Origin: Giardia intestinalis
Lineage: Eukaryota
Reading direction: 5' to 3' (one strand)
Assembly (NCBI GenBank): GCA_000002435.2
Contig: CM018792.1
Length of the DNA: 64,000 nucleotides
Both the position numbers and the translations under genes were made by a program. The notes beneath the pieces are model-generated. The model was given only the letters and a program-made list of their open reading frames with translations, was not told the DNA's origin and did no database searches. Shown here in pieces: positions 28,942-63,059 of this stretch (positions are counted from its first letter, which is position 1; each line of letters starts with the position of its first letter).

Positions 28942-28977
28942 AGCCGTGGCTTCAGTGTCAAAAGCTTTTAATGAATA
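28942..28977. promoter_or_regulatory. Putative shared AT-rich bidirectional promoter for the SMC5/6-like gene (-) and the ankyrin-RING gene (+)
   Basis: agcttttaatgaataatgaaaaagg lies between the MEQPSF Met of the SMC gene and the ATG of the ankyrin-RING gene. Confidence 0.4.
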
Positions 28978-40016: not shown

Positions 40017-40128
40017 GGTTAAATTTTCAGCATTCGTATTTATTTTTTAAAGAAAATTGCAATGAAATTTTCATCAATTGGAGGCCAAACGAGGCAGTCG
40101 CCTGTCCTGTAGCGGCGAGACGGCCATC

Positions 40129-43444: not shown

Positions 43445-43460
43445 ATATTCACTTCAGCCC

Positions 43461-44810: not shown

Positions 44811-44880
44811 TTTAAAATCTGGGGCGCCTGTAATTAAAGGCGTTATTTGTGGTCAGCTTTTCAAGAACAGCCATCTCCCC
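44811..44880 (-). promoter_or_regulatory. gdh proximal promoter: AT-rich initiator abutting the ATG plus upstream CAAAT-like element
   Basis: Minus-strand reading: ..ctgaccacaaataacgcctttaattacaggcgccccagattttaaaATG. Giardia promoters are typically under 70 bp, with an AT-rich initiator at the transcription start. Confidence 0.5.
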
Positions 44881-44975
44881 CGAAGGTCCTCGGGAGCCCC
44901 CGGCTCTCTACGCGCACACTTGTTCCGTAACCCTCAGAATAAGTTTGACCGGTATACTTTTAGTTTGTGGACATT

Positions 44976-45878: not shown

Positions 45879-45937
45879 TTTACATCTGCTGTACTGATAT
45901 TCGCAAGGATCATACGTTTACATTGCTAAGGATCGCA

Positions 45938-48900
45938 TCACAGGAAATAAAACGCAGACCCGTCCCACATCATGTCACCTTCGTCCATACCTTGGGCAAA
46001 TCCGAGGAACGTGCTACGCGAATCATCGAGGAATACCGGAATGCCTGCCAAGTGAGCTACGCTTGCCGCGGGCTCAAGGGTCAGGAAGAGGGTTGAAATG
46101 CCGCCACTGGGTGATTTCTGGATCACATCATGGTCGGCTACGAATAAGAATGACCTGACCGTTACTGATACCGTGCTGCTAGCAGCCACTGTCGTGAAGC
46201 ACGCGGCCATCTCTCCAGATCCAGATGCACCTGGACTTCCTTGACTCAATAGGTCTTGGAACAAGGCAGCAAAACACTGATGTGCGTTAGACCCAAGCTT
46301 CAGAGGCAGCAACGTAATGGTGTCGTCGTTACCAGTTTGCATAGCCTCAAGCACATCTGTGCAATACTGGTATTGATCTACGAGAAGTGAGACATGCTGT
46401 AGCGCATCCTCATTGAGCAAGCGTTGTAGTTCATCGAGAGCAGTGGGGCCCTTCTCTGCTGCATGCATGTAGGCTAGCAGCGTGGTCCTTGCTGCACATT
46501 TGACCTTAAAGATTGCAAGAGAAAATGAGCTCCACCTATGTGAAGAGGTAAGAGTGGCGCTTACCTCCTCTACCTGCTGAAGGCTTTTTCGAATGCTTAA
46601 GAGCTTACTGATAATCGCGCTCACAATGCTCATAGTTATGCAAGAACTGCTATCCGGGTCTTTTGTGCTTTTATATCCCACTCTTCCTAAAATGACCTGG
46701 TGCAGATCATCGACTTTCTTTTGCTGTGCAGCTGTCATTATTCCGTCCAGGGCCTCGTTCAGGAAGACCCCTGTACACGACTCCACCATTGTGGGCAATG
46801 CATCCATATTAACTATCTTGTCAATAAGCCTTTTTGCTATGACCTTATCGTGTAGAGCTGAAATCCTATTCCCAAAACAAATCTCATGGAGCAATTTTTC
46901 AAAGAACTGATTGGCAAAGGGACAGAACGACTTGTTATCCTTGGCGAGCTGTGCTGCAAACTCTTTCACAAGAAGCTCTATGGCGTAGCGCAGATCCACA
47001 GATGTGAAGGAGTAGCTTCCAGAAAAGCCGTATGGCCTCATGCTTGCCCTCAGTTTGAAGATAACGAATATGTATGTTAGCTTATCAAGAAGGCATTTGA
47101 ACTCTGAATCAAAGAATTGGCCAGCCTGCTGAGCCTCAGAATCGACTTCAGTAGCCTCTGCAGAAGGCGTGGTGGTATTAAGGATAATACTGGTCTGCTT
47201 GAGCGCTATTTGCCTTGCATCTAGCCTAGTTTGCTCATATAGAGCCACCGGGTTGAGCTCCTTTTGCGATAAAAAGGAGACACAGCCCAGTGACGTGGCT
47301 AAAGACCGCATTTCCTCTGTTAGGCTATTGTCATCTGCACCCTGGATTGAGATGATAATCGAGATGTTATTGCTGTAGGTCTTAAGGTGGCTCTGTATAA
47401 CCTTGCAAAGATCTTCACAGTATGAGGCAGAGGCCAGATGCATGTTGGTCAATAGGATAATATCACGGTCTCGAGCTGCCTTGAGGATACCAGCAATCTT
47501 TGAAATGTGTGCGTCAGGGACCCCGAAGGGAACTGAGTGCACCAGCGGTCCGTGGTTGGCGTCCGCTTTTACGTCTTGAATCACTGCCTGAACAATGCTC
47601 TTTGGATCAGTATTCTCAATAATGTTGAGGAGCATGCAATGGGTATGCTTTTGATAGAACGAATAGTACTCTGTGAAGGTTGTGTGCGACCGAAGCTTTA
47701 GTTCTTTGCGCGTTACTGCTTTTGGCGCCTCCGATGTCGCTATCTCTTTCAGAAACTTATAAGTGGCATCTCGTGCAGTCAGGGTCAGCGACGACTGGGT
47801 GTTATCGTAGCATAGCTCTATGAAAATAATGAGCAAGTCAGAGTAGTTCTTCGCAGCCAGCGTCGTGAATCTCTCCAGGGCTGCATCTAAAATAAACAAC
47901 ATCTGCTCCAGGTTAAAGAGAAAGCCCGGCTCTAGGTCCCGCAGATGTCGTAGTACGGAAAATATCCGAGCTAGAACTGTTGTGCAATCGTGTAGTTCGT
48001 CCTTGAAGGCATCATAGCTTTTCTTCTGGTGTCTGAGTGTCTCTATTTGCGTATTAATTTGTCTGTATCGGGCCTTGGTAGCTTGTAGATGAGATATTAA
48101 GCCGGTATTTGTCAAGATGGAGCTATGGTCAACTGCACTTAGAGTACAAAGTAACTCTTTTTCCAGCGAGACGATAGTCTTCGCGTGGGTCGACAAGTCC
48201 TGCTCTATTTTCTGTTGCACAGAGTACAGATCGGGATGCAGGTATTCAATTAAGTGGTTGCACAATATCTCAAATATTTTCTCATCACTATGAGCAAAGT
48301 TTATCACGGTACACTTTGCCGCAAAATGGATTGCGCGCCCAACTACCTGACATAAAACAATTGCACCAAAATCTGGGTGGACAGGAATGACAACGCCTCC
48401 CAACTCTACAATAAAGGATCTTCTAGCGTCAGGAGATGAATTAGTGGGCAAACTAGTAGACGTAGCTGGCTCTTCTACGACTCGATGTAACACAAAAAGG
48501 GCTGGATCCAAAGAGTCGCCATCTTCTATGATCAGAGTGAAGCCAAACTTCAATGCCCGCTCCACAGAGGCCATCAAGTCGTCTGCAAGTGCAGATACCA
48601 TGATATGCTTTTTATACGTAGCCCTGAGATGGTCTAAATCTCCCTTGGTGTAGTCAAACAACAAAACGGGCGTTACCGGAGACAGAACCCTCTCTATAAG
48701 AATGTGGTTTGACAATGAACCTCTGAGGCAAAGAGCCGTCCCGTTACTGTACGAAATAGACAAGGCATCGAGTATCTCTTCTGCAAACGTGGCGAGCTCA
48801 ATCCTCAAGTTGTCGGTGTAGGACCCGGCATAAGTCTCGTAAAACGCTTCCAGGAGCACGTCTCCCATAAGTTTGTCCAAGATGTGCTCAGACCCAGCCT

Positions 48901-51900
48901 GCTGCTCAGTCCACCGCTTAATTTCGTCAGAGAGCAACTCAGTGATGATAGTTGCCTGCTTGGTGTTGTTCTCACACTCGTCTGCCTGGTTTTGCAGCCG
49001 AATTTGGTGGGCTTCACATTCGCTACACTCCGCTGTCAAGCTATCAATATTCTTCTCCATTTCGACAAGCTCCACCATAATTTCGGCTCTTCTTATTTCC
49101 AGACCACTAGCCTCCTCCTTAATTTGAAGAAGCGCCTGCTCAAGCGGTTGGACCTTAGCCTTTATCTTCAGAAATCCATAAATGCTCATGACCCAATCGA
49201 ACAGGAAGCCAGCCGGCTGAGAGGCGTGGCTGACAATATCTTTTTTGAAGGTGGGATTGGACTGGTATTCTGCCAAACGCTCCAGCCGATAAGCAGCGTG
49301 CTCATCCTCAGCAGGATTATACATCAGAATGGAGGATTGAAAGTTGTTTCTCTGCATTATTTTACGGACGGCCTCCCAGCTTGTGTTAATTCCTGCGATT
49401 GTAGGAGATATAATGATGACTACCGCAGCCATAACTAGAGTTATTGCCTCTGCTGGCCTGGCCATTCGTCGAATCTCCTCTAGGGCAGCCTTGCTTATTG
49501 TGCGAATGGAGCCTCGGGCTGCTACAAGTGCAGGCTCTGCTTCGGCCAACTCCGACTGCACAGACTCCATGCGTGCCTGAATGTACTCATGCTTCTGTGT
49601 GATTTCGGTCGAAAGCTTCACTGACTCGGCCTTACTTGCCATGGTAATCTCTCTCAGCTTAATAACCTCAGACAGCTTCTCCTGAGTGAGTACGGTCATC
49701 TCTGCGAGCTTCTCCTTCTTTGTGCATAGCTCTTCCTGGAGCTCGCTGACGCGTCCCTGCACGATGTCTAATATCTCCAAGCCTTTTACCAGATGGTTCT
49801 GCTGAGAGCAGAAATCTGTGTACACCTGCAGGTACAGTAGTGCAAACCGTGTGCACAATCTCTCGTAATGAAGCAAGGAGTGGAAGGTAATAGATCGCGC
49901 CACATGACTAGTTTTCAACATCTCGGGTAGAGAAAGAGATCCAACAACATCGTGGTACTGCTGCACAATCGAAGGCGCCCTTTCGTGAAGCAAGGCTAGT
50001 GCAGCACAGAGGCGCTGCTGAGGCCCCAAGCCCTGTGCTGCGATGGTGAGCGTGTCTTGAATTTCTAAGACGCTATCGTCTTGCTGCTGCTTTAGAATAT
50101 CAAGCAGCTGCTGAGTTTCTGTAGATACCCGATCACATGCCTCTATGCTCTGCTGAAGCATTGGCTCTGTATCTGTGACCCGTCCGAGACAGTCGGAGAC
50201 AGACTTCGGGAACGCCAAGGCCTGGACATGCCCTGTCCCCTTAAGAACTAGGAAGTAGATAGGCATCCTACTAATACTAATCAATTGGCATCTGTTATAC
50301 AAAGCTGGACTGAAAGTTATGCCGGAGCCCTCAAGGGTTGAGCTGACTACAAAGAGTATATGGAGCTTTTGCTTGACCATCTGCTGTAATTGGGCCAGAT
50401 CTGAGAGACCTGCTAACGAGATAGTCTTGTGAAGCTGTGCTTTGGTTAAAAATCCAGTCACATCTCCATTACACAAGAGATTGTTTAGATGCTCTAGGAA
50501 GTTGATAGGAAGACCAGTTTCGTAAGAAATAACAACCAAGACATTGCCAGGTTTTGTTACCGCGGCTTCAATAGCGCCCCTGAGGAACTCCCGGAAATCT
50601 GTAAGGGAGTATCTTTTGACTGTTTTGAGCTCAAAGATGGTTGATTCAGAGAGCCACGCCAGGAACTGGAGCAGAGAGGCGTCAAAAACCCCTGGCTCAG
50701 CACTTATAATAAGGTGTCCATGTGGGGTGTTTAGGGTGCGCATAATGTGATAGATGGGATCGCTAACAAACTCCATGTGTGATAGTGTCAGCGTATTCGC
50801 TGATTTATTATGGTATTTAGAGAACAAGTAGCAAAGATTAGACCATGCCTCTTGTTCTGTCAAAATGGAGGCAAAGTGGGTAGCTGAATCAGTCAGCGAA
50901 GCCCCTGATGTTATATTGAACTTAAAGTTCTTCTGAAGAAGGAGCGTATTAAAGGTTGATAGCTCTAACATAGGATTGTCGGCGGTCCAGGTGCACAGAG
51001 CCTTGGAGAGAGACTCCAGAAATCCGTGAAGTGACCTTGCTAGAATGGCGATTGTTGCTTTCTTTTCTGGTTGAGTCATCAGTTTGGTTGAAAAGATAGC
51101 TGACCCCTCGTATAGAATGAGTTGGACAAACCTCTTGCATGAGAAGACCCCAGTAGCATCAGTAAGCTGATAAGATCCATAATGGTCTTTAACGGAAGCA
51201 ATCCACCGCGTCAGATCTCTGGGGGAGTAGACAGAGGAACTGTGCTCTCGGTCTGCGGCTGCAGCAATCTGTTCATAAGCAGAAACCATTGCGGATGCCA
51301 GGGAAATTGAGAGGGAGGTGGTGGTGTCAGGAGTCAGAACGCTCAACAAGTTTGATTCGGTCAGAATGTCCGCAAGCATGTCGTCAGTATAGGCGGTGTA
51401 TATGCTCAGGAGCGCTGCATGACTAGGATGGTCCAGATACAGCGTAGATATCTGCCTCATAAATCTCTCACTTAGAAGAGACCGTCCTGCATCTGTTGGG
51501 GGATTACAACTGCAGGCAATAATTATGTTAAATGGTAAGACAATGACTGCGGATGTTTCCAGTGGAGACTCTTTTGCTTCGTGGGCACCGGGCTTCTTTT
51601 TATCCTTGGAGCCTGGAAGAACCCCGTCATATATGAAGTATCTATGCTCTAAAAGGAAACGAAGAAACTCTATTACGGGTTGATTGTCAAAACAATCTTT
51701 ATCAACCAGGTTAATCTCGTCTATGATCAGGCAGAAGGTCTGTCTTGCCGGAGAGACCAATATGTAGTGATCGTCCTCTGGAACCACATCGAAATGATTG
51801 AAGAAAATAGAAATTAAATCGTCTGGAGAGGTCTGTGATGAAAAGGAGGTGAAAACAACGCGCAAGTTGGGGTTCTGATTCAATATATGCGTCAGAAGTA

Positions 51901-54900
51901 CTGTTTTCCCGCTACCTGCCGGTCCTATTAAGAGTACGTGTCTACCCTGGTCCACTAGAGAGCCTAGATACATTGCGTACGCTTGCGTATCCACATTAGG
52001 AACAAGCTGAGACCCCGCAGACGTCGATTCCAGTGTAGGGTTATGTAATGGGTGTGTAAGTTTGTTCCTGGGCATACTCGCGTCTTCAAAGCGCGCCCTT
52101 CTAGTGTGGGCTGTTAGTGAGCTCTCCATAAGCGTCGACATGCTCTCATGGATTGTAGAAACAAAGAAGCTACGTAGCTCACAATTCTCAGGATCGTTTA
52201 GCTGCCAATACTCACTGTTTATGGAGCAGACGTATGTTAGCAAAGAGGTGTGAGCAGGCTGAGTTGGTGGTCTGCGGCCATCCTCTTCATAGCTGGATTG
52301 AGGCGGAGGGTGTTGGACAGTTGCTGATAACCATAGGGACGATGATGCATTGAGATCGGACGAATCTGGAATTGTGTGCGCCTTTGTGACCAAGGAACGT
52401 TCCTGAGTATTTAAGCGAGAAGACGTTGTGTCGGAAGTGCGCTCGACACAGTATCCAGCGAACACTTCCGGTGCTGACGGTTTTGTATTGAAGTACGTAA
52501 TCGCCAAGAGATCAAACTGTAAGTCGTCCGCGTCGTCAGCATTGCTTGCATCCCCAGAGCCAGAGTGAGTAGGGGTCTTCGTGGAGACCTCACTAGAAGG
52601 CTGATCAAGATAGTCTGAATAGTACCTACAAACAAGATTGGACAAAGAGTGGCGCTCTGCAAGAGGTAGCTGACAGCTGAGAGACCAAGCCAATCCGAAG
52701 ATGAATTGTCTAACGTAAAACAAAATGAGCCTGTTATATGAGATTCCTGAGAAGGACAGAACGCGAGAAACAGTCTGAGGGCTCACCAGTTTCTGCAGAT
52801 CCATTGTGCGAAGAGACAGCCGAGCTTCAGCTAAGCCTAATTCAATTTGCGTTATCTTTGTACGAAAATACTTCTCTGCTTCTGCCACAGCTGCCTTAAG
52901 CATCATCACAAGGGTTGCTAGAACTCTTGTTACAGAAAAGTCAATAGGAGAGTATTGCTTGTAGCGACCTTTAGCATGGTCCAGAAGCTCGGATAGCGTG
53001 CCAGAAAAGCTAGTTGATGAAGTGTTGATGTCAGCAGAAATCCCCTTCAGAATGCCATCAATGAACTCTCCACTTCCCGTTGCGAGGCCTTTACCCGTGC
53101 GGAACAAGCGTCCCAAAGTGCCCGTCTTGTGAGTGATTACTGTGCCGGATGGTGCTTGCTGTGTGTTAGTCAACTGATCAATGAGCCCGTGGCACGCGAT
53201 AAAACTTTGGTGAAATGTAACGTATAGAGGCGTACTCGCGAAAAGGAAAGAGCTAAAAACGTCGAAGGCTACCGCATTAAGGCACGCTAATACGTATTTC
53301 TGTGTATGCAAGTTAGGGATTGAGTTGGAAAGATTGGCTCTAGAAGGGAGCCCTGTTTGAGTCCGTGTCTGTGCCGGGGGTTGCTCGGTTCGCCTAGAGT
53401 GCCCGGTTTCTGAAATCAAAGACAGAAGGCTCGATGCGTGCGGGTTGTCCATGACGAGTTGACGCTTAAGACAGCCGTATGCAAGATCTGATGCTGGCAC
53501 AGTATCTGCGTGATGAATGCTGACAGAGCACCGTGAGATGGTGGCCAAGGTTGCATGCCGGAGTGTAGAGCTTTCAAAAACAAAGCGGACGCTGTCTGGT
53601 ATGTGAATTCTCTCGCCTGTGCAAAGAGTTAAGCAACGATTTCCATCCAAGACGGAGTTGAAGGCTTCAATCCAGTCTGGATTAATATCGCAATCAAATA
53701 GAAAGAAGAATCTTGGCCATCGGCTGAGAAGACAGGGAGTGCCTGAGTCCATGTTTTCGCTAAGGGCAATGGCCTCTCGTAGAGCCCGAAGAAAGCTGCT
53801 ATCTATCCATTCACGTGAAGGCTCAATTAAAGTGCCGAGAAGCTTAGTTTTAGCTTGCAATGCCAGAGGAGATACGGTGTATGTAGTCAAAGCTCCCTGC
53901 GAAACACCCGTCAATTCTGTAAGAAAGGACGCCAAGGCCCGTCGAGCACCATAATAGACCTGTTGCGCAGCTGTCTTTCCTGTGGATGAGGTGCCTGCAA
54001 TAATGGTTCCAGGGCTGAGACAGAGGCACATGTGAAGATGCAGCACCTTGTCTAGGAAGGCTTGATTAGGAACGAGCCCCATTTGCAGTGTAACTTGTGA
54101 TACAAACTTCGTCAACAGGTCATCAAGACTAACACTTTCCAGCAGCTTGAGAGCATGCCTGTAGTTAGACGATTCAGGGATAGTAATCTGCCGCCTAGAG
54201 CAGTCGCTACTCAAGCGTGCCCGTATCGTGGCCTCACAACGCCCAAAGGTGGAGCAGATGAGATCATTAAATTGAGGAATGTCATGGTGAGAAAGCGTTG
54301 GAAGGAGGGTTCGACGTATGCCTGTGACAAGGATATATCGTTCTGCTGCTTCACGAATGTCCGGAGAATCGGAGCTGAGGAGTTGCGTTAACGATGGCTC
54401 GTCCTCAATAAGCAACTGGCCTGCGCGCAATGCCATGCGAATACTACGCAAACCCAAGTCGTGCGCAAAATGGAAGGATGATTTGGACGCCTGTTCAGCA
54501 TCTGACTGGATGTGGGCGACAACTGCCTCCAGCCGTTGATAAAACATGCAGACAAGTCGACTGAGAACTCTCCCAAACGTGAAACCCAAGGAGACCAGTA
54601 GTACGTCAACAATGCTCTCCACCTCTGCCTGGGACATCATTACTATTCTGAAGAGAGCACTGATGTTCTTTGGAAGAGTACGGCGTCCCTTGTATGAAGG
54701 GTTCATTGTTATGAAGCATGCAAACTCACGCAGCTGAGAAAGGCGGGACGGATCATATTTCTGCGAGTTAAGCGAGAACTGAGCCATGAAACTATTGGCT
54801 GTCCGCCGTAGCTCGTGGGTAGATGCCTCGATCAGGGTGTCATTCCCTAGTTCTAGGACGCGTCTGTAGCTTTCCTCCTTGGATAGGAGTTCTTGAATTG

Positions 54901-57900
54901 CGTCGACGATAAGGCTAATCGATGATAAATTGTCGACTGCCAAACGATTAAATTCGTCAAAGCAGACCACACACCCCAGCAGCAAGGCACCAATCATTAT
55001 GCGCACCACAGAAGCATAGTCAAAGGCCTCGTCACAGTTAAAAACAAAGCATGGCCTACCTAGGTGTGCTGACAGTTGACGTGTTGACTCCGTCTTCCCA
55101 GTGCCAGCTGGACCAACGGGGCTAATGAAGAACTGCGATCCTATGGCTATCAGTGATTGGGTGTAGTGACTACTTGTAAGCTCTGTTTGCACCAAATGCG
55201 GAGATGAGCCAACGTAGTTACAGCTATAGACGTGCGAATAGGACAAAACCTTCACAAGTATTGGACACTCATAGATTTTCTGCCAGGGGCTGGGGTTGAG
55301 GACAAGGGATCTAAACGGCTTAGCGCTGACATAGTACTTCATTGCAAAGAACCGATCCAAGCGTTTTTCATCGCTTCGCCCCTGTGTCGCCTCAAGTGAG
55401 ACAACTGATTGGAGAAAGATTATCTCGGGTAAAAGACAGTGTATATTGTAGAGTCCCTTATACGTCACCTGTATATATGCGAGAAGCTCCTTGAGGGCAA
55501 CACCTGTGCGATTCAAATCCACTCTATCCGGATCATCTGTATATAGGTCCAATATCTCCGTAACTACGAGATGCAGCCCAACAATAAACGCTTGGCACGT
55601 ATGTGACTCTAACAAGCAGGGTATCTGCGAGGATGCAACAGCCACAGAGTCACTTAGAAAGGTGAGAAGAACACGTCTGCAGTGAAGAATCTGTTCGTAC
55701 ATACTTAGCCTAATAGACGTCTCCAGCTTGAGAAGAAACGGATGAATAGCAATTTCATTTGCGGAACTCGCCACCAGGTCACTGATGCTGAAGAACTGAG
55801 AAGAATCCAGGTGAAACCTTTCACCCTCAGGTGATACAATCCCAACTATCAGGAGGCGGGCTCCAGTCAGAGACGATGGTATAAAGTCATCATTCTCACA
55901 CGGCTCAGCGCAGTGACACAAGTCGCTGCTTGATGCGAAAATGAAGTGGGCAAAACCGGGAAAGATCTTGCTCAAGTGTTTTTCAAGCATGCAAATGTCG
56001 CTGTTATTTGTTGAGACACCAATAACCTGAGAGCTGTTTGAATGGTCAGAACAATGAGGCATAAGCAGTGATGAAAGCGCAGTGATGACACTAAGGATGT
56101 TGTCGTCGGTGAGGAAGAAGAGCCTTGGCGAAACATAGCGCTGCTGCTCGATAAACGTAGCAAGGGACTTAGCTATATATTGGAGTGAATCTTTAATAGT
56201 TAGAATCTTGGATGTACATGCCTCAACACCCCCAAGGAAAGAGAAGAAATGAACAAGATTGTCTGTCGTACCTTTGGAAGGCATGTCAGACAGGTGGCTA
56301 TACATAAAGGCCAGGTCGGCGACAGCAGTTTCATACCTAAGCACAGCATCCTTTATGTAGCGCTTAACAATGGCCATATTCTGTGCAAGCACAGAGGATA
56401 GTTGAATATATTCTGACTGTGTCTCTGTCAGAGCCTTCACGGCCGCGAGATATAGAATAAAGGTCTCCTGGAGTACTATTAACTGAGAGCTAAACTCCGT
56501 ATAGAATGGGGTAGTTGACAGGTCCGAAATGCTAAGGAGTGCCGATTCCAAACTTTTTGTTATGTCAGCAAGGTTACTAATAATGTGAGTATCATTTCGG
56601 TGTACGAATGTTAGGGGTATGCTCTTGGACAGTAGAGTATGTGCGTTAATCATGCCGTACACAGAGGAACGTGCTCGTGCCTGAGATAGAATGCTTTCAC
56701 ATATGCCAGTAAGAACCCTGAGAGGCTCCTTGTCTTGAGTGTGGACAACTGAGCCGGAATCAGAAGAGGCGCCTTTCTGAGACGTTAGTGACTGATGCGA
56801 CAAGCTCAGGAAGAGCAGGAGATGATCGAGAAGCTCATACACGGTGTATGTCTGAAGCCGTGTCTGAATATTTAGAGCGGGAGGAAAATTGGCTTGAGTG
56901 CCGCACACAAATCTAAGCTCAGCAAGAAATTCTGGCCAGTGAGAGGGATGGAAAGAGGTGGGATTGCACAGCTGGACTAGATATGGCTGGAGCGTAGCGA
57001 GCGTATGGGTGTACCCCGACAAGGCGGCAGTAAGTTTGGAAGGGTTTTTCCAGGTAGTGCTGTTTTGTTCTAGCCATTTAACCACCTTCTGATTGCCCTG
57101 GAAGACCCCACCCAGCTCTAAATAGTCTTCAATAAGATGCTCTAGCTCGTGGCAAAAAGCTGACAATGCAGAGTCGATTGCTGCTGAGTTACAGTCTAGT
57201 ACTGATGAATTGAGATCTCGCCCTTTTAGTCCGTCAAACAGGTGAGTCAGCTTGTGACAGAGAGGCAAGTAGGTTGAGTCAATAACCTCCGTCGCCACTA
57301 TGAGGGCCTCCATGTCGGCATTGGTACACGTTGACATGTTGATGCCAAATAACGCTGACGCTGACGCAGCAACTCCAAGAATGTCAGTGAGGTCTTTCTG
57401 CAGATCAGCAAGCCGCTGCCGAACTTCCTGAACATGCTTTAAGAGAATTCCTGGGTCAAGGCTGCCATCTGGCGTGAGTACGTCCGGACACATGAGGGAG
57501 GGATCAGTAACTTTTGCAATGTTGACAAGACTGGATTCATGGAACAAGTTCTCGGTGGCCTGCAGGTTTGCTAGTATCCTTGCTGAGGATACCTTGTCTT
57601 CCAGCACCCGTGCCTTCAGATACGAATATCTTTCGGCAAACGTGGGATAAACATTGTCGATGAGAGCGTCCACCATAGACTGCTCGTTAGCTGTCAGGAC
57701 AAGTGTTGCACGGAGACGGGGAAGCAGATCCTTATGTTTGATATAGAGCCCATCCGCGTCTGCTGAGTGAGCAAGACACTTCAGAACAGCCACAGAATCA
57801 TTCCAGTCCACTTCGTCGCGCGGATTACCGCGAGGACCACTGAGATCCTGCAGCTCGGTGTTCAATCGAGAGAAGAGGCGTGTCAAATGATCGATCAATG

Positions 57901-60900
57901 CTAGTGTACACTCTGTCACCTTGGCGAGTACGCTGTTCTGGAACGCTTTGTATCTATTATAAAAGGCCTTCTTGAAGTCATCCGAGACAGATAGCTCAAC
58001 CAGACGTAAAAAGCTCTCCTTTTCGCCATCGTTTAACAAGAAGTAATAGGCTTCCTGAAAATCTTTGTCTGCATGATCCAGAACATGTACCCACGAGTGG
58101 AGCTGTGAGTTAGTCACACTATGAGATTGAACAAACTTTTCCGCCCTATCCAGTGCCCACGTGTCAACACACACGTGGATACGCACAAGGCGCCTGGTAA
58201 ATCTGCTAGAGCTCCTGATAGCATCCGCACGAATTTCGTTCAGCAGTTGAGTTACTAGGTTAACATTATTGTGGAGTTTTAGCTCACCGCCATGTAGCGT
58301 ATCCACTTGGATGGCGAAGATCATGCGAGAAAAGGACTCTATTGTTGGAACGTGTGCCTTATAAAGATGCTGTGTATTCATTAAACCCCCACGAGATGCA
58401 ACGTCAGCGTCAGCTGGAGAAGGGGCAACGTCTGAAAGCAGGCAGAGTGCAGACGGATCGACTGGAAGCTCACACCCTATGATTCCAGAAACTATAGTGT
58501 CCACGATTGATAGAAAGGCAGGAGACTTCAATGCGGCAAGAGCGTGTGCTTCTCTGGGCTCAACATGCATTAACGCATCATCAAGAGAAACAGTCAAGTG
58601 CCTGCATGCGTTGGCCACGAATGGGAAAAGTGACTGTTTGGCAGCTCTAAATTGATGATAGTCAGTGTTGGTAAGTGAGGTTTGATAGTTTTGGAGGGCA
58701 TTGGAGTCGCCCAGAAACTGCTCCCTAAGAATAAGAAGGGCATAGATTAGCCGCGTCGTCATGATGCGCGAGATTAAAACAGAAAGCGAGTAATGAGTCG
58801 CCAGACGTCCCGGATCAGAACGCTTCTGGCTAGACGTCTCTGTGGAGAGTACACCGTTAGCGTCTAGACGGTTGAGAGAGTATCTTAGCTTGTCAAGAAG
58901 TTTAGCGACTGAGGACTGTTTTGAAATTATAAGTTCAGAAATAATTTCGCGGATAATCTCTGTCTCCGAAACAATAGATATAAATGCCACATCAAGCTGT
59001 GCTACGGAGCGATAAAGTTTGCGGAACTGATTAGAGAGGATAGCAGTGTATGCGTCAATTGTACCATTCTCGGGCAAGCTATCCTGGCGGACCATGTCGC
59101 CGCATTGGGAGCCGGAATGTGTGGCGTAAGTCATTGAAAAGTCGTTATCGACGTGAACTAGCTGCAGAGGAAGAGACAGGAAGTACGGGGAAAATAGAGC
59201 TTCATAAAAGGGAGAAACATTGGGGCGATTCTCGGAGCCATAGATATCGCTTATAGAGTAAAACTTGACATAATTTGGACACAGCTCTCCAAAAATAGAT
59301 AATCGTACAAGGATTGCATAAATCTGTGATATGTTAACGGAAAGATTGTACGATAGCGAGCTGTTATCCATGACCTTCTTGGAGTTTCCCGTTGTGCCCA
59401 TCCAGGCGGCCAGATGCCCAATCAGTTGCGAAAACTTCTTTAGTGCTGGGAGCAGTATCCCAACAATAGCGTTGAACAGGGACTGGTACCTTTGCATGAT
59501 AGAGCTGTGGAGTATCTTTGAAGCGTTTGGCAGCCTTCCAGCGACAGCAAAGGAGCTGCAGAGACTCTGGGCACTGAAGAGTGAGGGAACAGGCGTAGTC
59601 ACCAATAAGTCAGGGGGCGACGATGCCTCTAGTGCCGAGTCTGTTGTCAACAGGTGAAGGGTCTTGGGGAGACGGGAAACTGTAAGAATTCCAGCCTGAC
59701 GCGTAGAGAGTTCTTGATATCTAGTGGAATCTCTTTCAAATGCAAGAACGTGCTCGCACAAAAATTGAGATAGATGAGTGGCCTCGAGGCCAGTATCAGG
59801 ACAGTAAAAGGATGAGATCAGGAGCTCAGTCCAAAGCTCGCCCCACTTGCTATACTTAGAAGAGAACGTATTTAAGTTCGCAGCAAGAGCAGTGCTAATT
59901 TTGGAAATGGAGCTGAGTGAATCTGCTTTGATTACAGACGAACGAACTAGTAGAACACCGAGCAGCTCAATGCTGAATACATGCCTGCTTCTGGAAAACA
60001 AAAGCAAGGAAGCAGTCAGGAGATTGGGAAGGATAGTGCTCCTAATCAGGAGGGTTCCGGCAGCCTCTCTGATATCGTCTATCTCTAGTTGTTGAAGATG
60101 AGTGTTTTCATTGCTGACCACCGCCTTCCTGTAGTACTCAATCAGCTCACAAAGCAGTAGCTCTCTTATTTCTACGTGTTCTCTCTGAGTTCTGAGCTGC
60201 AAATACACGTTCTGTTCTGTTGAGCTAAGTGTCTTGCTAAGTTCTGCGGTAAATTTGACTATCAAGGCGTTGTAATAATTTTTGGTTCCTGGCTGCAAGG
60301 ACGCAATTATAGCAAATCGAGAGAAGTGTTCTCCATATCGTGTGATAAACGTGTGGATGTTGTTTGTGGAAAAGAGGCTGTCTAGGATGCCCTTGTATAT
60401 ATCCTCGTAGCTATTCATAGAGGCCAGGAGACCGGGGATAGATGTAAGCCCTCGAAGCACGGTGGCTGCAGCTGGGTTGTTTGGGAAAAGGCTACAGGAT
60501 GGCGCTTTTGGGTGAATAAATGAGCGAGTAAAAAGATAGGAAAGTTGTTGCAAATATTGATAAGAACAGTCAGGGACATCATCCTGCTCAGGAGACAGCT
60601 GTGCCATGAAAGCTAGCTCGTGTGACCGGGCTAGCCTAAGCACGTCTGTGAGCCGGTCTATCAACGACGCAGGTACATGGGGTACAGATGTACAGAGAAG
60701 TTGGACATGCTCTCGGAGTCGCTGTATATCTACAAGCGCTCCAGAAAGAGCAATTAACCTGGCGGAAAAGTCAACAAGCATATCCGAATCCATAATCTCG
60801 TACGGCGGGGCATATGCAGCTAGCTTGAATGTAAGAGAGGTATACTTCTCAATAGCCTTTACGCCAGCCAACTCAGAGATTAGATTCTGGGAGATAGCTC

Positions 60901-62176
60901 CAGCGCCAAACAGAAAGCTGGTCTCTAGTGGATCGAATGCGCGAATGGTGCTCCAGACAAGACGGATAAAGTGATAGGTCATGTAAAAGTGAACGAAGTG
61001 AATATACACCGACTTTTCAGATGCACTAAAAGCTTGCATCTCTTTCAGATTACTGCTGTTGGCATCTAGTTGTCTGAACACTTGCCACGATGCCAGGGCA
61101 CTCGGGAGGATGTCCGTTAGCGATCTAAAGTGCTCTATTAACGAGGCGAGTTCTCGATAGTATGAGATCTTAGCCTCTACACCGTTGTAGCGTGATAGCA
61201 GCTCATTAACACGGGGTAAAGAGGAGACGGCGAATTGTTCGACTAGTTCGGATAGAATAACCCTCGCAACCTCAATGTGTGGAAGAGTTTCGCGGATATC
61301 TGCTAGTAAGGCTTCGTACCCATAGGCAAGGGAGTACACGTGAATTTCGAAAAGGCTCAGCACCTTGTGAACCGCACAAGCCAGATTATAGACTGAATTA
61401 CTGCCAGAAGGACTAGTTAACGCCATGATATAGTCATCTAGTCGGTTAAAGTCGTTGAAAGACAAGTCTTCTAAAGAGGATACTTCTCCCAGAACCCGAG
61501 AGACGTTGCTCATGAAAAGCTTGGCGAAGGCAGATACTTGCTCATGATTGAGAGAGGATGGACCGTGCTCTTGGTAGGATGTAATCAGGTGTTCTAGGTT
61601 TAGTCGCATTGACTCAGAGCTATAGAAGTGGATAATGGGAATCTTGCTATACCGTAAAAATCCGGTCTTATCTGCTAGCTTTTGGGAGAACTCACGCATG
61701 AGAGCGAGCACTGATGCACCAAGAGAGCTTTGGGCGGCAACTGATGCATCGGTGCTGGAGGCCTCAGAGTCCAGGTAAATTCTGTCAATAAGACCGGCGA
61801 ACGTCTCAAGAACACTAGTTCTAGATGCATTTATCACTTGGATGGAGCGTGATAGCTCAGGTATTGCGCTCATGCTTGCAGGGGCAGCATTGGTTACATT
61901 GAGAATAAGCAAAGAGGTTCGGGAGACATCGCTAGGCTTATTATGGTCGACCTTTGTAAGTGCGCGGGTTTCAGGCTCTAAAAGGATTGACGAATGGATA
62001 GGCTGGATGACAATAGTTCCGGCCAGATCTATGGAAAGGTGGAAAGACATACTCCCACCTGAAAGAAAAGCAATCGCCGTCGTGTCTGCCATCATCTTCT
62101 CAAGCACGTTCTCGGACGGGACCCCAGACTGCATAGCGACGGCCCCTGCCAAGTACTGCGCAGCAACGCTCGGCAT
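45938..62176 (-). CDS. Dynein heavy chain (cytoplasmic-type AAA1 signature), 5412 aa
   Basis: AAA1 P-loop/Walker B FISPVGPAGTGKTEST..FVFNCDEAFDY..CFDEFNRL near 55090. AAA2 AGTSSTGKT near 53990. AAA3 LLIGPAGSGKT near 51920. Long coiled-coil stalk and C-terminal domain downstream. Roughly 2350-aa N-terminal tail. S/T/acidic low-complexity insert between AAA2 and AAA3. Confidence 0.9.
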   Translation of the reverse strand: MPSVAAQYLAGAVAMQSGVPSENVLEKMMADTTAIAFLSGGSMSFHLSIDLAGTIVIQPIHSSILLEPETRALTKVDHNKPSDVSRTSLLILNVTNAAPASMSAIPELSRSIQVINASRTSVLETFAGLIDRIYLDSEASSTDASVAAQSSLGASVLALMREFSQKLADKTGFLRYSKIPIIHFYSSESMRLNLEHLITSYQEHGPSSLNHEQVSAFAKLFMSNVSRVLGEVSSLEDLSFNDFNRLDDYIMALTSPSGSNSVYNLACAVHKVLSLFEIHVYSLAYGYEALLADIRETLPHIEVARVILSELVEQFAVSSLPRVNELLSRYNGVEAKISYYRELASLIEHFRSLTDILPSALASWQVFRQLDANSSNLKEMQAFSASEKSVYIHFVHFYMTYHFIRLVWSTIRAFDPLETSFLFGAGAISQNLISELAGVKAIEKYTSLTFKLAAYAPPYEIMDSDMLVDFSARLIALSGALVDIQRLREHVQLLCTSVPHVPASLIDRLTDVLRLARSHELAFMAQLSPEQDDVPDCSYQYLQQLSYLFTRSFIHPKAPSCSLFPNNPAAATVLRGLTSIPGLLASMNSYEDIYKGILDSLFSTNNIHTFITRYGEHFSRFAIIASLQPGTKNYYNALIVKFTAELSKTLSSTEQNVYLQLRTQREHVEIRELLLCELIEYYRKAVVSNENTHLQQLEIDDIREAAGTLLIRSTILPNLLTASLLLFSRSRHVFSIELLGVLLVRSSVIKADSLSSISKISTALAANLNTFSSKYSKWGELWTELLISSFYCPDTGLEATHLSQFLCEHVLAFERDSTRYQELSTRQAGILTVSRLPKTLHLLTTDSALEASSPPDLLVTTPVPSLFSAQSLCSSFAVAGRLPNASKILHSSIMQRYQSLFNAIVGILLPALKKFSQLIGHLAAWMGTTGNSKKVMDNSSLSYNLSVNISQIYAILVRLSIFGELCPNYVKFYSISDIYGSENRPNVSPFYEALFSPYFLSLPLQLVHVDNDFSMTYATHSGSQCGDMVRQDSLPENGTIDAYTAILSNQFRKLYRSVAQLDVAFISIVSETEIIREIISELIISKQSSVAKLLDKLRYSLNRLDANGVLSTETSSQKRSDPGRLATHYSLSVLISRIMTTRLIYALLILREQFLGDSNALQNYQTSLTNTDYHQFRAAKQSLFPFVANACRHLTVSLDDALMHVEPREAHALAALKSPAFLSIVDTIVSGIIGCELPVDPSALCLLSDVAPSPADADVASRGGLMNTQHLYKAHVPTIESFSRMIFAIQVDTLHGGELKLHNNVNLVTQLLNEIRADAIRSSSRFTRRLVRIHVCVDTWALDRAEKFVQSHSVTNSQLHSWVHVLDHADKDFQEAYYFLLNDGEKESFLRLVELSVSDDFKKAFYNRYKAFQNSVLAKVTECTLALIDHLTRLFSRLNTELQDLSGPRGNPRDEVDWNDSVAVLKCLAHSADADGLYIKHKDLLPRLRATLVLTANEQSMVDALIDNVYPTFAERYSYLKARVLEDKVSSARILANLQATENLFHESSLVNIAKVTDPSLMCPDVLTPDGSLDPGILLKHVQEVRQRLADLQKDLTDILGVAASASALFGINMSTCTNADMEALIVATEVIDSTYLPLCHKLTHLFDGLKGRDLNSSVLDCNSAAIDSALSAFCHELEHLIEDYLELGGVFQGNQKVVKWLEQNSTTWKNPSKLTAALSGYTHTLATLQPYLVQLCNPTSFHPSHWPEFLAELRFVCGTQANFPPALNIQTRLQTYTVYELLDHLLLFLSLSHQSLTSQKGASSDSGSVVHTQDKEPLRVLTGICESILSQARARSSVYGMINAHTLLSKSIPLTFVHRNDTHIISNLADITKSLESALLSISDLSTTPFYTEFSSQLIVLQETFILYLAAVKALTETQSEYIQLSSVLAQNMAIVKRYIKDAVLRYETAVADLAFMYSHLSDMPSKGTTDNLVHFFSFLGGVEACTSKILTIKDSLQYIAKSLATFIEQQRYVSPRLFFLTDDNILSVITALSSLLMPHCSDHSNSSQVIGVSTNNSDICMLEKHLSKIFPGFAHFIFASSSDLCHCAEPCENDDFIPSSLTGARLLIVGIVSPEGERFHLDSSQFFSISDLVASSANEIAIHPFLLKLETSIRLSMYEQILHCRRVLLTFLSDSVAVASSQIPCLLESHTCQAFIVGLHLVVTEILDLYTDDPDRVDLNRTGVALKELLAYIQVTYKGLYNIHCLLPEIIFLQSVVSLEATQGRSDEKRLDRFFAMKYYVSAKPFRSLVLNPSPWQKIYECPILVKVLSYSHVYSCNYVGSSPHLVQTELTSSHYTQSLIAIGSQFFISPVGPAGTGKTESTRQLSAHLGRPCFVFNCDEAFDYASVVRIMIGALLLGCVVCFDEFNRLAVDNLSSISLIVDAIQELLSKEESYRRVLELGNDTLIEASTHELRRTANSFMAQFSLNSQKYDPSRLSQLREFACFITMNPSYKGRRTLPKNISALFRIVMMSQAEVESIVDVLLVSLGFTFGRVLSRLVCMFYQRLEAVVAHIQSDAEQASKSSFHFAHDLGLRSIRMALRAGQLLIEDEPSLTQLLSSDSPDIREAAERYILVTGIRRTLLPTLSHHDIPQFNDLICSTFGRCEATIRARLSSDCSRRQITIPESSNYRHALKLLESVSLDDLLTKFVSQVTLQMGLVPNQAFLDKVLHLHMCLCLSPGTIIAGTSSTGKTAAQQVYYGARRALASFLTELTGVSQGALTTYTVSPLALQAKTKLLGTLIEPSREWIDSSFLRALREAIALSENMDSGTPCLLSRWPRFFFLFDCDINPDWIEAFNSVLDGNRCLTLCTGERIHIPDSVRFVFESSTLRHATLATISRCSVSIHHADTVPASDLAYGCLKRQLVMDNPHASSLLSLISETGHSRRTEQPPAQTRTQTGLPSRANLSNSIPNLHTQKYVLACLNAVAFDVFSSFLFASTPLYVTFHQSFIACHGLIDQLTNTQQAPSGTVITHKTGTLGRLFRTGKGLATGSGEFIDGILKGISADINTSSTSFSGTLSELLDHAKGRYKQYSPIDFSVTRVLATLVMMLKAAVAEAEKYFRTKITQIELGLAEARLSLRTMDLQKLVSPQTVSRVLSFSGISYNRLILFYVRQFIFGLAWSLSCQLPLAERHSLSNLVCRYYSDYLDQPSSEVSTKTPTHSGSGDASNADDADDLQFDLLAITYFNTKPSAPEVFAGYCVERTSDTTSSRLNTQERSLVTKAHTIPDSSDLNASSSLWLSATVQHPPPQSSYEEDGRRPPTQPAHTSLLTYVCSINSEYWQLNDPENCELRSFFVSTIHESMSTLMESSLTAHTRRARFEDASMPRNKLTHPLHNPTLESTSAGSQLVPNVDTQAYAMYLGSLVDQGRHVLLIGPAGSGKTVLLTHILNQNPNLRVVFTSFSSQTSPDDLISIFFNHFDVVPEDDHYILVSPARQTFCLIIDEINLVDKDCFDNQPVIEFLRFLLEHRYFIYDGVLPGSKDKKKPGAHEAKESPLETSAVIVLPFNIIIACSCNPPTDAGRSLLSERFMRQISTLYLDHPSHAALLSIYTAYTDDMLADILTESNLLSVLTPDTTTSLSISLASAMVSAYEQIAAAADREHSSSVYSPRDLTRWIASVKDHYGSYQLTDATGVFSCKRFVQLILYEGSAIFSTKLMTQPEKKATIAILARSLHGFLESLSKALCTWTADNPMLELSTFNTLLLQKNFKFNITSGASLTDSATHFASILTEQEAWSNLCYLFSKYHNKSANTLTLSHMEFVSDPIYHIMRTLNTPHGHLIISAEPGVFDASLLQFLAWLSESTIFELKTVKRYSLTDFREFLRGAIEAAVTKPGNVLVVISYETGLPINFLEHLNNLLCNGDVTGFLTKAQLHKTISLAGLSDLAQLQQMVKQKLHILFVVSSTLEGSGITFSPALYNRCQLISISRMPIYFLVLKGTGHVQALAFPKSVSDCLGRVTDTEPMLQQSIEACDRVSTETQQLLDILKQQQDDSVLEIQDTLTIAAQGLGPQQRLCAALALLHERAPSIVQQYHDVVGSLSLPEMLKTSHVARSITFHSLLHYERLCTRFALLYLQVYTDFCSQQNHLVKGLEILDIVQGRVSELQEELCTKKEKLAEMTVLTQEKLSEVIKLREITMASKAESVKLSTEITQKHEYIQARMESVQSELAEAEPALVAARGSIRTISKAALEEIRRMARPAEAITLVMAAVVIIISPTIAGINTSWEAVRKIMQRNNFQSSILMYNPAEDEHAAYRLERLAEYQSNPTFKKDIVSHASQPAGFLFDWVMSIYGFLKIKAKVQPLEQALLQIKEEASGLEIRRAEIMVELVEMEKNIDSLTAECSECEAHQIRLQNQADECENNTKQATIITELLSDEIKRWTEQQAGSEHILDKLMGDVLLEAFYETYAGSYTDNLRIELATFAEEILDALSISYSNGTALCLRGSLSNHILIERVLSPVTPVLLFDYTKGDLDHLRATYKKHIMVSALADDLMASVERALKFGFTLIIEDGDSLDPALFVLHRVVEEPATSTSLPTNSSPDARRSFIVELGGVVIPVHPDFGAIVLCQVVGRAIHFAAKCTVINFAHSDEKIFEILCNHLIEYLHPDLYSVQQKIEQDLSTHAKTIVSLEKELLCTLSAVDHSSILTNTGLISHLQATKARYRQINTQIETLRHQKKSYDAFKDELHDCTTVLARIFSVLRHLRDLEPGFLFNLEQMLFILDAALERFTTLAAKNYSDLLIIFIELCYDNTQSSLTLTARDATYKFLKEIATSEAPKAVTRKELKLRSHTTFTEYYSFYQKHTHCMLLNIIENTDPKSIVQAVIQDVKADANHGPLVHSVPFGVPDAHISKIAGILKAARDRDIILLTNMHLASASYCEDLCKVIQSHLKTYSNNISIIISIQGADDNSLTEEMRSLATSLGCVSFLSQKELNPVALYEQTRLDARQIALKQTSIILNTTTPSAEATEVDSEAQQAGQFFDSEFKCLLDKLTYIFVIFKLRASMRPYGFSGSYSFTSVDLRYAIELLVKEFAAQLAKDNKSFCPFANQFFEKLLHEICFGNRISALHDKVIAKRLIDKIVNMDALPTMVESCTGVFLNEALDGIMTAAQQKKVDDLHQVILGRVGYKSTKDPDSSSCITMSIVSAIISKLLSIRKSLQQVEEVSATLTSSHRWSSFSLAIFKVKCAARTTLLAYMHAAEKGPTALDELQRLLNEDALQHVSLLVDQYQYCTDVLEAMQTGNDDTITLLPLKLGSNAHQCFAALFQDLLSQGSPGASGSGEMAACFTTVAASSTVSVTVRSFLFVADHDVIQKSPSGGISTLFLTLEPAASVAHLAGIPVFLDDSRSTFLGFAQGMDEGDMMWDGSAFYFL

Positions 62177-62213
62177 TTCTATTTAAAAGGGAGGAGTTTT
62201 ACTTAGCTCCCAT

Positions 62214-63059
62214 TTACTTAGCTCTCATGGCGTCGTGAATGCTGCTATAGTAGTAGAAGAAGTTCTGGGCAACAAGGCCTCCAAGCCCAAAGTTGAAGTA
62301 GACGCGGCTGCCCCCAGAGGGCCACTCGATGCCCTTGAGCTTGAGGGTGTTGACCGTCCCAGAGATGGACCCACCGGCAGGGATCAGAGTCATCTCTGCG
62401 CCAGCAGGAACGTTCTCGGGGAAGATGCAGCGCACGCTGGGGTCCTCTTCTGAAGCCACAACTGTGATCACAAGGCTCTGCTCAAAATCGTACTTGGATC
62501 CTACCTGAACCACAGGAACCATGACGCCCGCGCCGGTCTTATTGGTGACGGTAATCTTGAATTCCCCGTTGCCAAACGGATTACCGTACTCAGTCGCATC
62601 TGGGGGAATGATCTGGTCAACGGTCATCTCGAGCCCCGCAGGTACAGCGTAGGCAGGGCGGCCCGAAGTAGCACAAACAGAGACTGCTCCCGTTGTGGCA
62701 CCGGTCCACTTCTTCGTGAAGGGAGACTTGGTTGCGCTGTCCCAGCCGTAGGGCACGGCCAGGATCTTCTCGGCCAACTTGCGTGCCTCGTCTTCCGAGG
62801 CAACAGCCTCCGCCGCCTTAAACACAAGCATGCCCTCGTCCTCCTCTCCGCCAAAAAGGTACGTCTTGCCCTTCTCCACCGGGCAACGGTCTCCGATGTA
62901 AAAGAACATCACGTCGTTGCACGCATTCCCACGGACCATCTTCAAGGGCTTGACGACTATGGAGCAGCGGCACTGGGGAGGAAGGGACATCGTTTGCATC
63001 CCCGGCATAAGCTGGGTGATAGTTCCGTAACCTATTGCGGGATGAGACTCGATAGGCAT
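62214..63059 (-). CDS. Hypothetical 281-aa protein, GC-rich and strongly codon-biased (likely abundantly expressed)
   Basis: ORF with GC3-biased codons similar to gdh. Gly/Val/Ala/Thr-rich, predicted beta-rich. No recognisable motif. Convincing as a gene, product unknown. Confidence 0.5.
   Translation of the reverse strand: MPIESHPAIGYGTITQLMPGMQTMSLPPQCRCSIVVKPLKMVRGNACNDVMFFYIGDRCPVEKGKTYLFGGEEDEGMLVFKAAEAVASEDEARKLAEKILAVPYGWDSATKSPFTKKWTGATTGAVSVCATSGRPAYAVPAGLEMTVDQIIPPDATEYGNPFGNGEFKITVTNKTGAGVMVPVVQVGSKYDFEQSLVITVVASEEDPSVRCIFPENVPAGAEMTLIPAGGSISGTVNTLKLKGIEWPSGGSRVYFNFGLGGLVAQNFFYYYSSIHDAMRAK

Follow-up and report, generated by a model that had tools for sequence, protein, structure and literature searches.

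Whether Giardia intestinalis possesses a cytoplasmic dynein-1 heavy chain (DHC1) is a question on which two large comparative studies conflict (PMC2239267 versus PMC5100056), and the locus considered here bears directly on it. The window, that is, the whole stretch of 64,000 nucleotides (nt) that was analysed (contig CM018792.1 of assembly GCA_000002435.2), carries at positions 45938..62176, on the minus strand, one unbroken open reading frame (ORF) of 5412 codons, with an ATG start, its sole stop at the end and zero N, which encodes a giant dynein heavy chain. The gene was known and named before: the public records KAE8303447.1, XP_001707253.1 and UniProt A8BFF0 hold the same ORF from G. intestinalis WB under the name “CytoDHC cytoplasmic dynein heavy chain”, and, being annotated already, it is no new find. 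What the present analysis adds is evidence on the disputed Giardia DHC1, the loss of the ATP site in the fourth motor module and a proximal tail that is maybe a lineage-specific replacement. The analysis favours a dynein-1 origin, and we give a probability of about three in four to the reading that the protein descends from the cytoplasmic dynein-1 heavy chain, is functional in Giardia and has diverged much further than members of that family usually do.

In the first of the two studies a DYNC1 heavy chain was attributed to Giardia, two Giardia sequences being flagged as unstable, and no dynein-1 intermediate chain (DYNC1I) was found (Wickstead and Gull, 2007; PMC2239267). Dynactin was not found in diplomonads (Hammesfahr and Kollmar, 2012; PMC3583065), and metamonads were described as keeping DHC1 without DYNC1I, DYNC1LI and dynactin (Karnkowska et al., 2019; PMC6759080).

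Class and integrity of the heavy chain

The protein has the parts that mark a dynein heavy chain, namely a linker, six AAA+ modules and a stalk with the microtubule-binding domain (MTBD) between AAA4 and AAA5, and its motor is collinear in alignment with the dynein motors of the PDB. A preliminary description of this DNA, made from the letters alone, had called it a dynein heavy chain with a cytoplasmic-type AAA1, on the ground that FNCDE and CFDEFNRL are typical of cytoplasmic dyneins. Both statements were borne out. When residues 2000-3199 were scanned with HMMER over 1.84 billion representatives, 4753 relatives were retrieved, and among the best 150 of them DEFNRL is present in 143 and NCD[E/D] in at least 95, axonemal-type sequences having FNCS[ED]/DEFNRI instead. 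Giardia AAA1 shares GPAGTGKTES, FNCDE and CFDEFNRL with dynein-1, Walker A and Walker B being intact, and shows neither the axonemal FNCS[DE]/DEFNRI signature nor a motor nearest to the outer- or inner-arm classes.

The cytoplasmic character extends to the whole motor, which is nearer to dynein-1 than to dynein-2 or the axonemal chains in scores, profiles and trees. In a PDB comparison set with all nine classical dynein classes represented, phmmer gave the motor (residues 2001-5412) 456-460 bits to human DYNC1H1, 433 to Dictyostelium dynein-1 and 326 to yeast dynein-1, compared with about 300 to DNAH1 and 277 to DYNC2H1; for the part from AAA3 to the stalk (residues 3390-4480) the corresponding values are about 250, 228, 184, 144 and about 92 bits. 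Two independent hidden Markov models (HMMs) of nine DHC1 sequences each scored 998 and 955 bits on the Giardia motor, and a nine-sequence DHC2 HMM 759, so that the DHC1/DHC2 ratio resembles that of DHC1-like controls kept out of the training (Kipferlia, 1.5; Barthelona, 1.35; Spironucleus, 1.4). With Foldseek, all 50 top matches of an AlphaFold model of residues 2680-3780 are dynein-1 motors (E ~1e-28), and with hhalign residues 1356-2283 match positions 955-1749 of a 21-sequence DHC1 tail and linker profile at a probability of 99.9% (E 1.9e-34). Dynein-1 (DYNC1H1, Dictyostelium DhcA, yeast Dyn1) is the top match of all classes in sequence, profile and fold, and the order of the parts is the same, with distal tail, linker, AAA1-6, stalk/MTBD and C-terminal end.

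The motor phylogeny proposed in the preliminary description, against DHC1, DHC2/IFT (intraflagellar transport) and axonemal classes, was run by neighbour joining (NJ) and placed the gene on the DHC1 side at 84-100%, not with the axonemal chains. The main tree holds 91 near-complete motors from the 150 best matches over 2524 columns, under Kimura and gamma distances, the DHC2 clade being labelled via the PDB (P0382, 3190 bits to DYNC2H1) and two DEFNRI sequences serving as the axonemal outgroup; under both distance corrections, DHC2 plus axonemal sequences are separated from all the rest, Giardia included, at 100% bootstrap, and the DHC2 sequences form a clade of their own at 100%, with the Giardia gene outside it. 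In a second tree, restricted to AAA1-AAA2 (581 columns) and with 26 axonemal-type and 10 DHC2 sequences added, the Giardia protein falls on the DHC1 side in 89/100 replicates, the exact split being recovered in 84%. On these grounds the protein appears to be derived from dynein-1, though it is no ordinary member of the family.

That the gene encodes the IFT (dynein-2) heavy chain of Giardia is accordingly very improbable. FNCDE and CFDEFNRL are common to dynein-2 (DYNC2H1, DHC1b), which has the same cytoplasmic-type AAA1, and the aligned dynein-2 example also has a weakened, degenerate AAA4 P-loop; however, dynein-2 scores lower on every measure (DYNC2H1 277 against 457 bits for DYNC1H1 over the motor, 92 against 250 from AAA3 to the stalk, and 759 against about 1000 bits by class profile), and it forms the separate 100% clade that excludes the Giardia gene. 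A separate DYNC2/IFT dynein of Giardia is also described in the literature (PMC2239267, section 6; PMC6992383). A DHC2 identity was rejected on bit scores, class profiles and tree, the protein failing to group with DYNC2H1.

The unusual length of the protein and the weak scores of several Pfam dynein models could also suggest an assembly artefact, such as the joining of two genes that the preliminary description had proposed as a refutation, or a decaying pseudogene (a “ghost” dynein). We attach next to no probability to these readings, because intact orthologues are present in assemblages E and B and the ratio of nonsynonymous to synonymous substitution rates (dN/dS) is 0.12. The uninterrupted ORF recurs in the independent WB, DH, P15 and assemblage B assemblies (assemblages A, A2, E and B), which excludes a joining of two genes, and the assemblage A form is carried by dozens of independent Logan read-archive contigs. 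The syntenic orthologues measure 5414 residues in assemblage E (P15) and 5379 in assemblage B, and across the three lineages there is no frameshift or stop. Assemblages A and E share 86.7% amino acid identity with four indels of 1-4 residues, A and B share 74.9% (C-terminal 2952 residues) with one deletion of 18 residues at residue 3243, within the largest insert described below.

By the Nei-Gojobori method (A versus E), dN/dS is 0.117 for the whole gene at dS 0.57; by region, it is 0.13 in the tail, 0.072 in AAA1 (98% identical between A and E), 0.18-0.27 in the insert region, 0.035 in the stalk/MTBD and 0.175 in AAA6 plus the C-terminus. Every part of the gene is under purifying selection, inserts and tail included, and both the artefact and the pseudogene readings were ruled out by the orthologous intact ORFs and these ratios. 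The complete coding sequence of 5412 residues at 45938..62176 is defined by ORF, translation, database match, orthologues and dN/dS.

Motor anatomy, ATP sites and extra length

The Pfam families follow one another in the canonical order, DHC_N2, AAA_6, AAA_7, DYN_lid, AAA_8, MT, AAA_9 and AAA_lid_11, all with unusually low scores; DHC_N1 and Dynein_C have no Pfam match anywhere in the 5412 residues. All features of the gene given below lie on the minus strand. The distal tail and linker occupy residues 1356-2283 (55328..58111), as defined by hhalign against the DHC1 profile and by Pfam DHC_N2 at residues 1713-2032. AAA1 (residues 2317-2650; 54227..55228; motifs, Pfam and alignment) has all its motifs intact, with Walker A GPAGTGKT at residue 2355 (nt 55091-55114), FNCDE at residue 2379 (nt 55028-55042), Walker B CFDEFNRL at residue 2405 (nt 54941-54964) and the sensor-I motif ITMNPSY at nt 54692-54712. 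The large domain of AAA2 (53525..53995; recognised by its Walker A, its arginine and invariant alignment columns) keeps GKT in the Walker A motif GTSSTGKT (residue 2728, nt 53972-53995) and the conserved arginine in ATISRCS (nt 53525-53545). In AAA3 (residues 3385-3517; 51626..52024; motifs, Pfam and alignment) both Walker motifs are intact, GPAGSGKT at residue 3418 (nt 51902-51925) and IIDEINL at nt 51707-51727. The motifs listed in the preliminary description were all found in their places, with AAA1 at residue 2355 and exactly 690 residues between AAA2 and AAA3.

AAA4 (50288..50764; motifs and alignment) is degenerate, a loss that the preliminary description had missed. At the Walker A position stands SAEPGVFDAS (nt 50675-50704), where GxSGxGKT is expected, and at the Walker B position VISYETG (nt 50513-50533), where FxFDESN is expected; the arginine pointing towards AAA3 is retained in SPALYNRC (nt 50288-50311). 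Of the four P-loops (AAA1-AAA4) expected of DHC1, AAA1-AAA3 keep GK[ST] and that of AAA4 is lost. The AAA1 site, made of Walker A, Walker B, sensor I and the AAA2 arginine, is complete, and so is the AAA3 site, made of both Walker motifs and the AAA4 arginine. Both Walker motifs are gone from the AAA4 site, which is predicted to be unable to bind nucleotide in the usual way, because SAEPGVFDAS and VISYETG stand in their positions. Thus, the catalytic residues of AAA1 and AAA3 are intact, as in dynein-1, and the protein differs from it in an AAA4 without either Walker motif and in AAA5, AAA6 and a C-terminal domain that are barely recognisable.

The coiled-coil stalk and MTBD (residues 4175-4461; 48794..49654; Pfam MT, dN/dS and alignment to canonical MTBDs) cover 282/344 positions of the Pfam MT profile without large indels and are the most constrained part of the gene (dN/dS 0.035, with residues 4201-4300 95-98% identical between assemblages). 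AAA5, AAA6 and the C-terminal domain (residues 4504-5412; 45941..48667; Pfam, PDB scores and C-terminal alignment) are very divergent, Pfam AAA_9 scoring 60 bits and AAA_lid_11 26.5 bits. Residues 4481-5412 (45941-48736) reach no more than 38 bits to any PDB dynein, and yet their dN/dS is 0.10-0.18. The C-terminal domain appears to be present, unlike in the yeast-type sequences of the alignment, because the terminal IPVFLDDSR...W (nt 46016-46042) can be aligned with PVY..R at the canonical C-terminus, a PV[YF]..R motif being kept.

As the preliminary description had estimated, the protein exceeds typical heavy chains by about 800 residues (5412 against ~4600 in canonical ones), and most of the net extra length is in the tail. 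The motor stretch, counted from 450 residues before the AAA1 P-loop to the C-terminus, has 3508 residues against ~3180-3250 in canonical DHC1, a net gain of ~260, and a net excess of ~545 residues lies upstream of that point. Canonical dyneins of ~4600 residues in the comparison library have the AAA1 P-loop at residue ~1800-1940 and 625-690 residues from AAA1 to AAA3; in the Giardia protein this distance is 1063 residues, 690 of them between the AAA2 and AAA3 P-loops. Compared with 85 non-diplomonad motors, there are 24 inserted segments of at least 12 residues, 562 residues in total, concentrated at residues 2942-3388, and nine deletions of 10-62 columns each partly offset them. The insert cluster stretches from the small domain of AAA2 as far as the beginning of AAA3 (residues 2926-3389; 52010..53401; insert columns, pLDDT and dN/dS), and its largest member has 106 residues (residues 3198-3303, nt 52268-52585); the two peptides quoted from it in the preliminary description are encoded at nt 52523-52597 and 52259-52309, inside the 52200..52640 interval given there.

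In an AlphaFold model (16-sequence alignment, mean predicted local distance difference test (pLDDT) 68) the AAA2 large domain, most helices of the AAA2 small domain and AAA3 are confident, and pLDDT falls below 50 at residues 2926-2953, 2995-3057, 3195-3226, 3243-3309 and 3326-3389, which coincide with the inserts. In this model the inserts take the form of loops that connect folded elements; the mapping onto a structure that had been proposed puts them in loops of low confidence between confident AAA2 and AAA3. They are polar, with 50-65% STDNGPQEK, but the term “low-complexity” given to them earlier does not hold, since in every 25-residue window of residues 3190-3400 the Shannon entropy is at least 3.0 bits, and a low-complexity or repeat origin was rejected on this measure. 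The attribution of the excess length to S/T/D-rich inserts stands for the AAA2-AAA3 interval and fails for the late AAA1, which follows upon ~1355 residues that align with no dynein tail. Likewise, the inserts are specific to a Giardia-like clade, wider than Giardia alone, in that assemblage B, the protein P0282 and in part the protein P0284 (see below) have them too.

Tail, relatives and competing readings

The N-terminal ~1000 residues of canonical dynein-1 contain the dimerisation domain and the sites for the intermediate and light intermediate chains. Residues 1-1355 of the Giardia protein (58112..62176; Pfam, PDB, HMM, hhalign and protein search) have no similarity by sequence to a dynein tail and do not match the dimerisation, intermediate-chain and light-intermediate-chain regions of DHC1; the DHC1 tail family DHC_N1 is missing there, and only residues 1356-2283 are homologous. 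This part of the protein has no Pfam match and no PDB match at E<=10, and a query of residues 1-1350 found no match in an indexed protein search whose index apparently lacks long proteins. From that index an 800-residue query retrieved fragments of at most ~1400 residues, the Giardia protein itself not among them, and the top fragments belong to ordinary DHC1 and axonemal chains. The canonical DHC1 tail HMM gave marginal values only (iE 0.04-0.09), reproducibly matching residues ~1050-1200 to profile positions ~720-860, and hhalign with a broadened profile reached a probability below 2% on residues 1-1355 (P ~0.03 against 0.13 for the reversed control, not significant); a remote DHC1-tail homology of residues ~1050-1200 was rejected, hhalign being no better than the reversed control.

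The tail is predicted to consist almost entirely of helices, apart from a small alpha/beta unit within its first ~120 residues, which is the only part with pLDDT 65-80. Its AlphaFold2 model has a mean pLDDT of 38, and on so poor a model the top Foldseek matches are dynein tails at only E~1e-3, a hint at most. The tail is conserved within the Giardia-like clade, and its dN/dS of 0.13 has been given above. Its divergence would fit the reported lack of intermediate chain, light intermediate chain and dynactin in Giardia.

The nearest sequences to the Giardia gene are the assemblage B orthologue and two proteins from public read-archive assemblies, P0282 (5037 residues) and P0284 (6095 residues, longer than the Giardia protein). 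In the query region, from linker to AAA2, they are 42% (P0282) and 36% (P0284) identical to Giardia, and their tails can be aligned with that of Giardia at 20-30% identity. AAA1 comes late in both (residue 2151 in P0282, 2806 in P0284), and the AAA1-to-AAA3 distance is expanded to 971 and 951 residues, respectively, compared with 1063 in Giardia and 636 in Spironucleus. Barthelona, Kipferlia and Stygiella have an intact AAA4 P-loop. In Spironucleus (SKSGYGKQ) and P0284 (GAPGSGKK) the loop has degenerated, and P0282 and Giardia have lost it; P0284 differs from Giardia in keeping this partial P-loop together with a DE Walker B, and P0282 in having lost the AAA2 GKT motif as well. Hexamitinae read TAA and TAG as glutamine. 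P0284 is unlikely to come from Hexamitinae, because its ORF of 6095 codons is unbroken in the standard code.

In the whole-motor NJ tree the Spironucleus salmonicida protein V6LMN2 (P0341) joins Giardia, P0282 and P0284 at 100%, and Barthelona follows. P0341 is likewise a diplomonad protein with dynein-1 nearest in the PDB (916 bits, next class 561), is about as divergent from canonical DHC1 (25.6% identity, against 24.4% for Giardia) and has a degenerate AAA4 P-loop. It differs from the Giardia protein in its normal length (4209 residues), in an AAA1-to-AAA3 distance of 636 residues without the AAA2-AAA3 inserts, and in a tail still recognised by the DHC1 tail profile, from position 720 on. 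The Giardia protein itself is ~24% identical to dynein-1 over conserved motor columns, ~800 residues longer and carries ~560 residues of loop insertions.

Several observations weigh against a dynein-1 origin of the gene. In a survey of 3272 dyneins no DHC1 was recognised in Giardia, while one was recognised in S. salmonicida (Kollmar, 2016; PMC5100056), and an orphan diplomonad dynein was described whose tail is alignable to no class (PMC5100056); this orphan is probably the present gene. Identity over conserved motor columns is 24.4% to DHC1, 22.3% to DHC2 and 21.5% to axonemal chains, which is a small margin, and the last 930 residues, which score DHC1 no higher than axonemal chains (<=38 bits to the PDB), carry no class signal. 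The trees are of NJ type only, their taxa were selected for resemblance to the query, none of the extra classes of Kollmar is identifiable in them, and the placement of the gene within the DHC1 part of the tree has at most 59% support. The link between Giardia and Spironucleus, at 100% on the whole motor, falls to only 27% on AAA1-AAA2, a pattern like that of long-branch attraction, and because of this drop the Spironucleus grouping may be due in part to such attraction. Moreover, a literature search for expression, localisation or motility data on the CytoDHC gene found none.

Two other origins have been considered in the light of these observations. The gene could be a diplomonad-specific paralogue, in which case an ancestral DHC1 was duplicated, Spironucleus kept the ordinary copy and Giardia only the divergent, new-tailed one, with a shift in function. 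This would agree with Kollmar's separate listing of a Spironucleus DHC1 and of diplomonad orphans (PMC5100056), with the instability of the Giardia-Spironucleus link and with the normal AAA1-to-AAA3 spacing and the tail match from position 720 of P0341, neither of which is found in the Giardia-like clade; but we hold it unlikely, given that P0341 is about equally divergent from canonical DHC1, that its AAA4 P-loop is also degenerate, which an orthologue undergoing the same decay would be expected to show, and that Giardia, P0282, P0284 and Spironucleus group at 100% in the whole-motor tree. Besides P0341, 0/91 motors group with the Giardia-like sequences, only 10 hits being named, so that a second, closer Spironucleus chain may exist.

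Alternatively, the protein could belong to an ancient, separate “orphan” class, resembling DHC1 only since DHC1 is the slowest-evolving and most ancestral-like of the classes. Kollmar grouped the orphan with none of his 17 classes, its tail not being alignable, and in the present protein too residues 1-1355 align with no class, the motor grouping with DHC1 in a sample that lacks identifiable extra classes; the small identity margin and the absence of class signal from the N-terminal 1355 and the last 930 residues point the same way. We nevertheless regard this origin as quite improbable, since the advantage of DHC1 recurs in independent regions (linker and distal tail, AAA1-2, AAA3 to stalk), the cytoplasmic FNCDE/CFDEFNRL signature is present, the DHC1 side has 84-100% bootstrap and a long-branch artefact would be expected to pull the gene towards the outgroups, not into DHC1.

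If the protein is a functional descendant of dynein-1, ATP turnover at AAA1, gated by AAA3, would swing the linker, and the swing would be turned, via the stalk and the conserved MTBD, into minus-end-directed stepping along microtubules, by analogy with other dynein-1 motors. AAA4 would be a purely structural element of the ring, the inserts would be surface loops that leave the ring undisturbed, and the divergent proximal tail may mediate dimerisation as well as contacts with cargo or an anchor, by way of partners specific to the lineage.

Surroundings of the gene and meaning for dynein-1

Upstream of the coding sequence, on the same strand, a 37-nt intergenic spacer (62177..62213, read from the sequence) ends in an A/T-rich CTTTTAAATAGAA abutting the ATG, which we take to be a typical Giardia initiator-type context. 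The sequence TGTAAAC, 17 nt past the stop (45915..45921 on the minus strand, read from the sequence), resembles what is presumably the Giardia poly(A) signal, AGTRAAY. A 281-aa ORF (GL50803_11354; 62214-63059, minus strand), conserved in Giardia and without a Pfam family, ends in a stop codon that precedes the start codon of the dynein gene by 37 nt, and a 114-aa ORF (61842-62186, plus strand), antisense to the 5' end of the dynein coding sequence, is most likely a chance ORF. G+C content (GC) is ~0.47-0.49 across the dynein gene, compared with 0.54-0.56 at 42000-46000 (VID27-like, gdh and TMP-1 genes). Eight ORFs in the neighbourhood, looked up by exact match, identify the window as G. intestinalis WB clone C6; their products include NADP-GDH, TMP-1, TCP-1 delta and an NPL4-like protein, besides a NEK kinase.

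Elsewhere in the window, a 1422-aa SMC-like ORF (24775-29043, minus strand) is listed with a GTG start that is probably too far upstream, and the start of a 617-aa ORF with ankyrin repeats and a RING finger (28978-30831, plus strand) overlaps it by 66 nt. An IPP-transferase ORF with a zinc finger (40078-41295, plus strand) and a VID27-like ORF (41222-43444, plus strand), listed with TTG and GTG starts, also overlap; the listed starts are probably over-extended, because the genes called in assemblages E and B do not overlap. Two further minus-strand ORFs code for a 2011-aa hypothetical protein without a Pfam match (GL50803_94646; 5398-11433; in a stretch with a lower GC of 0.44-0.45 and with positive GC and AT skew) and for a 580-aa protein conserved in Giardia and without a Pfam family (12369-14111). 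At 63132-64000 (plus strand) an ORF leaves the end of the window, of which only the last ~35 residues match a protein kinase C-lobe, whereas what precedes them has a degenerate look; the ORF may encode one of the many divergent (NEK-like) kinases of Giardia.

Dynein-1 is normally among the most conserved of eukaryotic proteins and relies on intermediate chains, light intermediate chains, dynactin and adaptors, all of which Giardia reportedly lacks. In the Giardia gene AAA1, AAA3, the MTBD, the distal tail and the linker have been kept, and the AAA4 site and the proximal tail have been lost or replaced. We tentatively suggest, as a possibility to which we give rather less than even chances, that residues 1-1355 form a module peculiar to this lineage, which assumed the tasks of dimerising and of binding cargo or an anchor once the intermediate chain, the light intermediate chain and dynactin had been lost, and that the expanded AAA2-AAA3 loops, kept throughout the Giardia-like species, are possible docking sites for new regulators. 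If true, this would be a cytoplasmic dynein-1 operating without the canonical accessory machinery, with two working ATP sites plus AAA2. The gene thus offers a natural experiment that bears on how little a cytoplasmic dynein requires, and it may be a target specific to the parasite.

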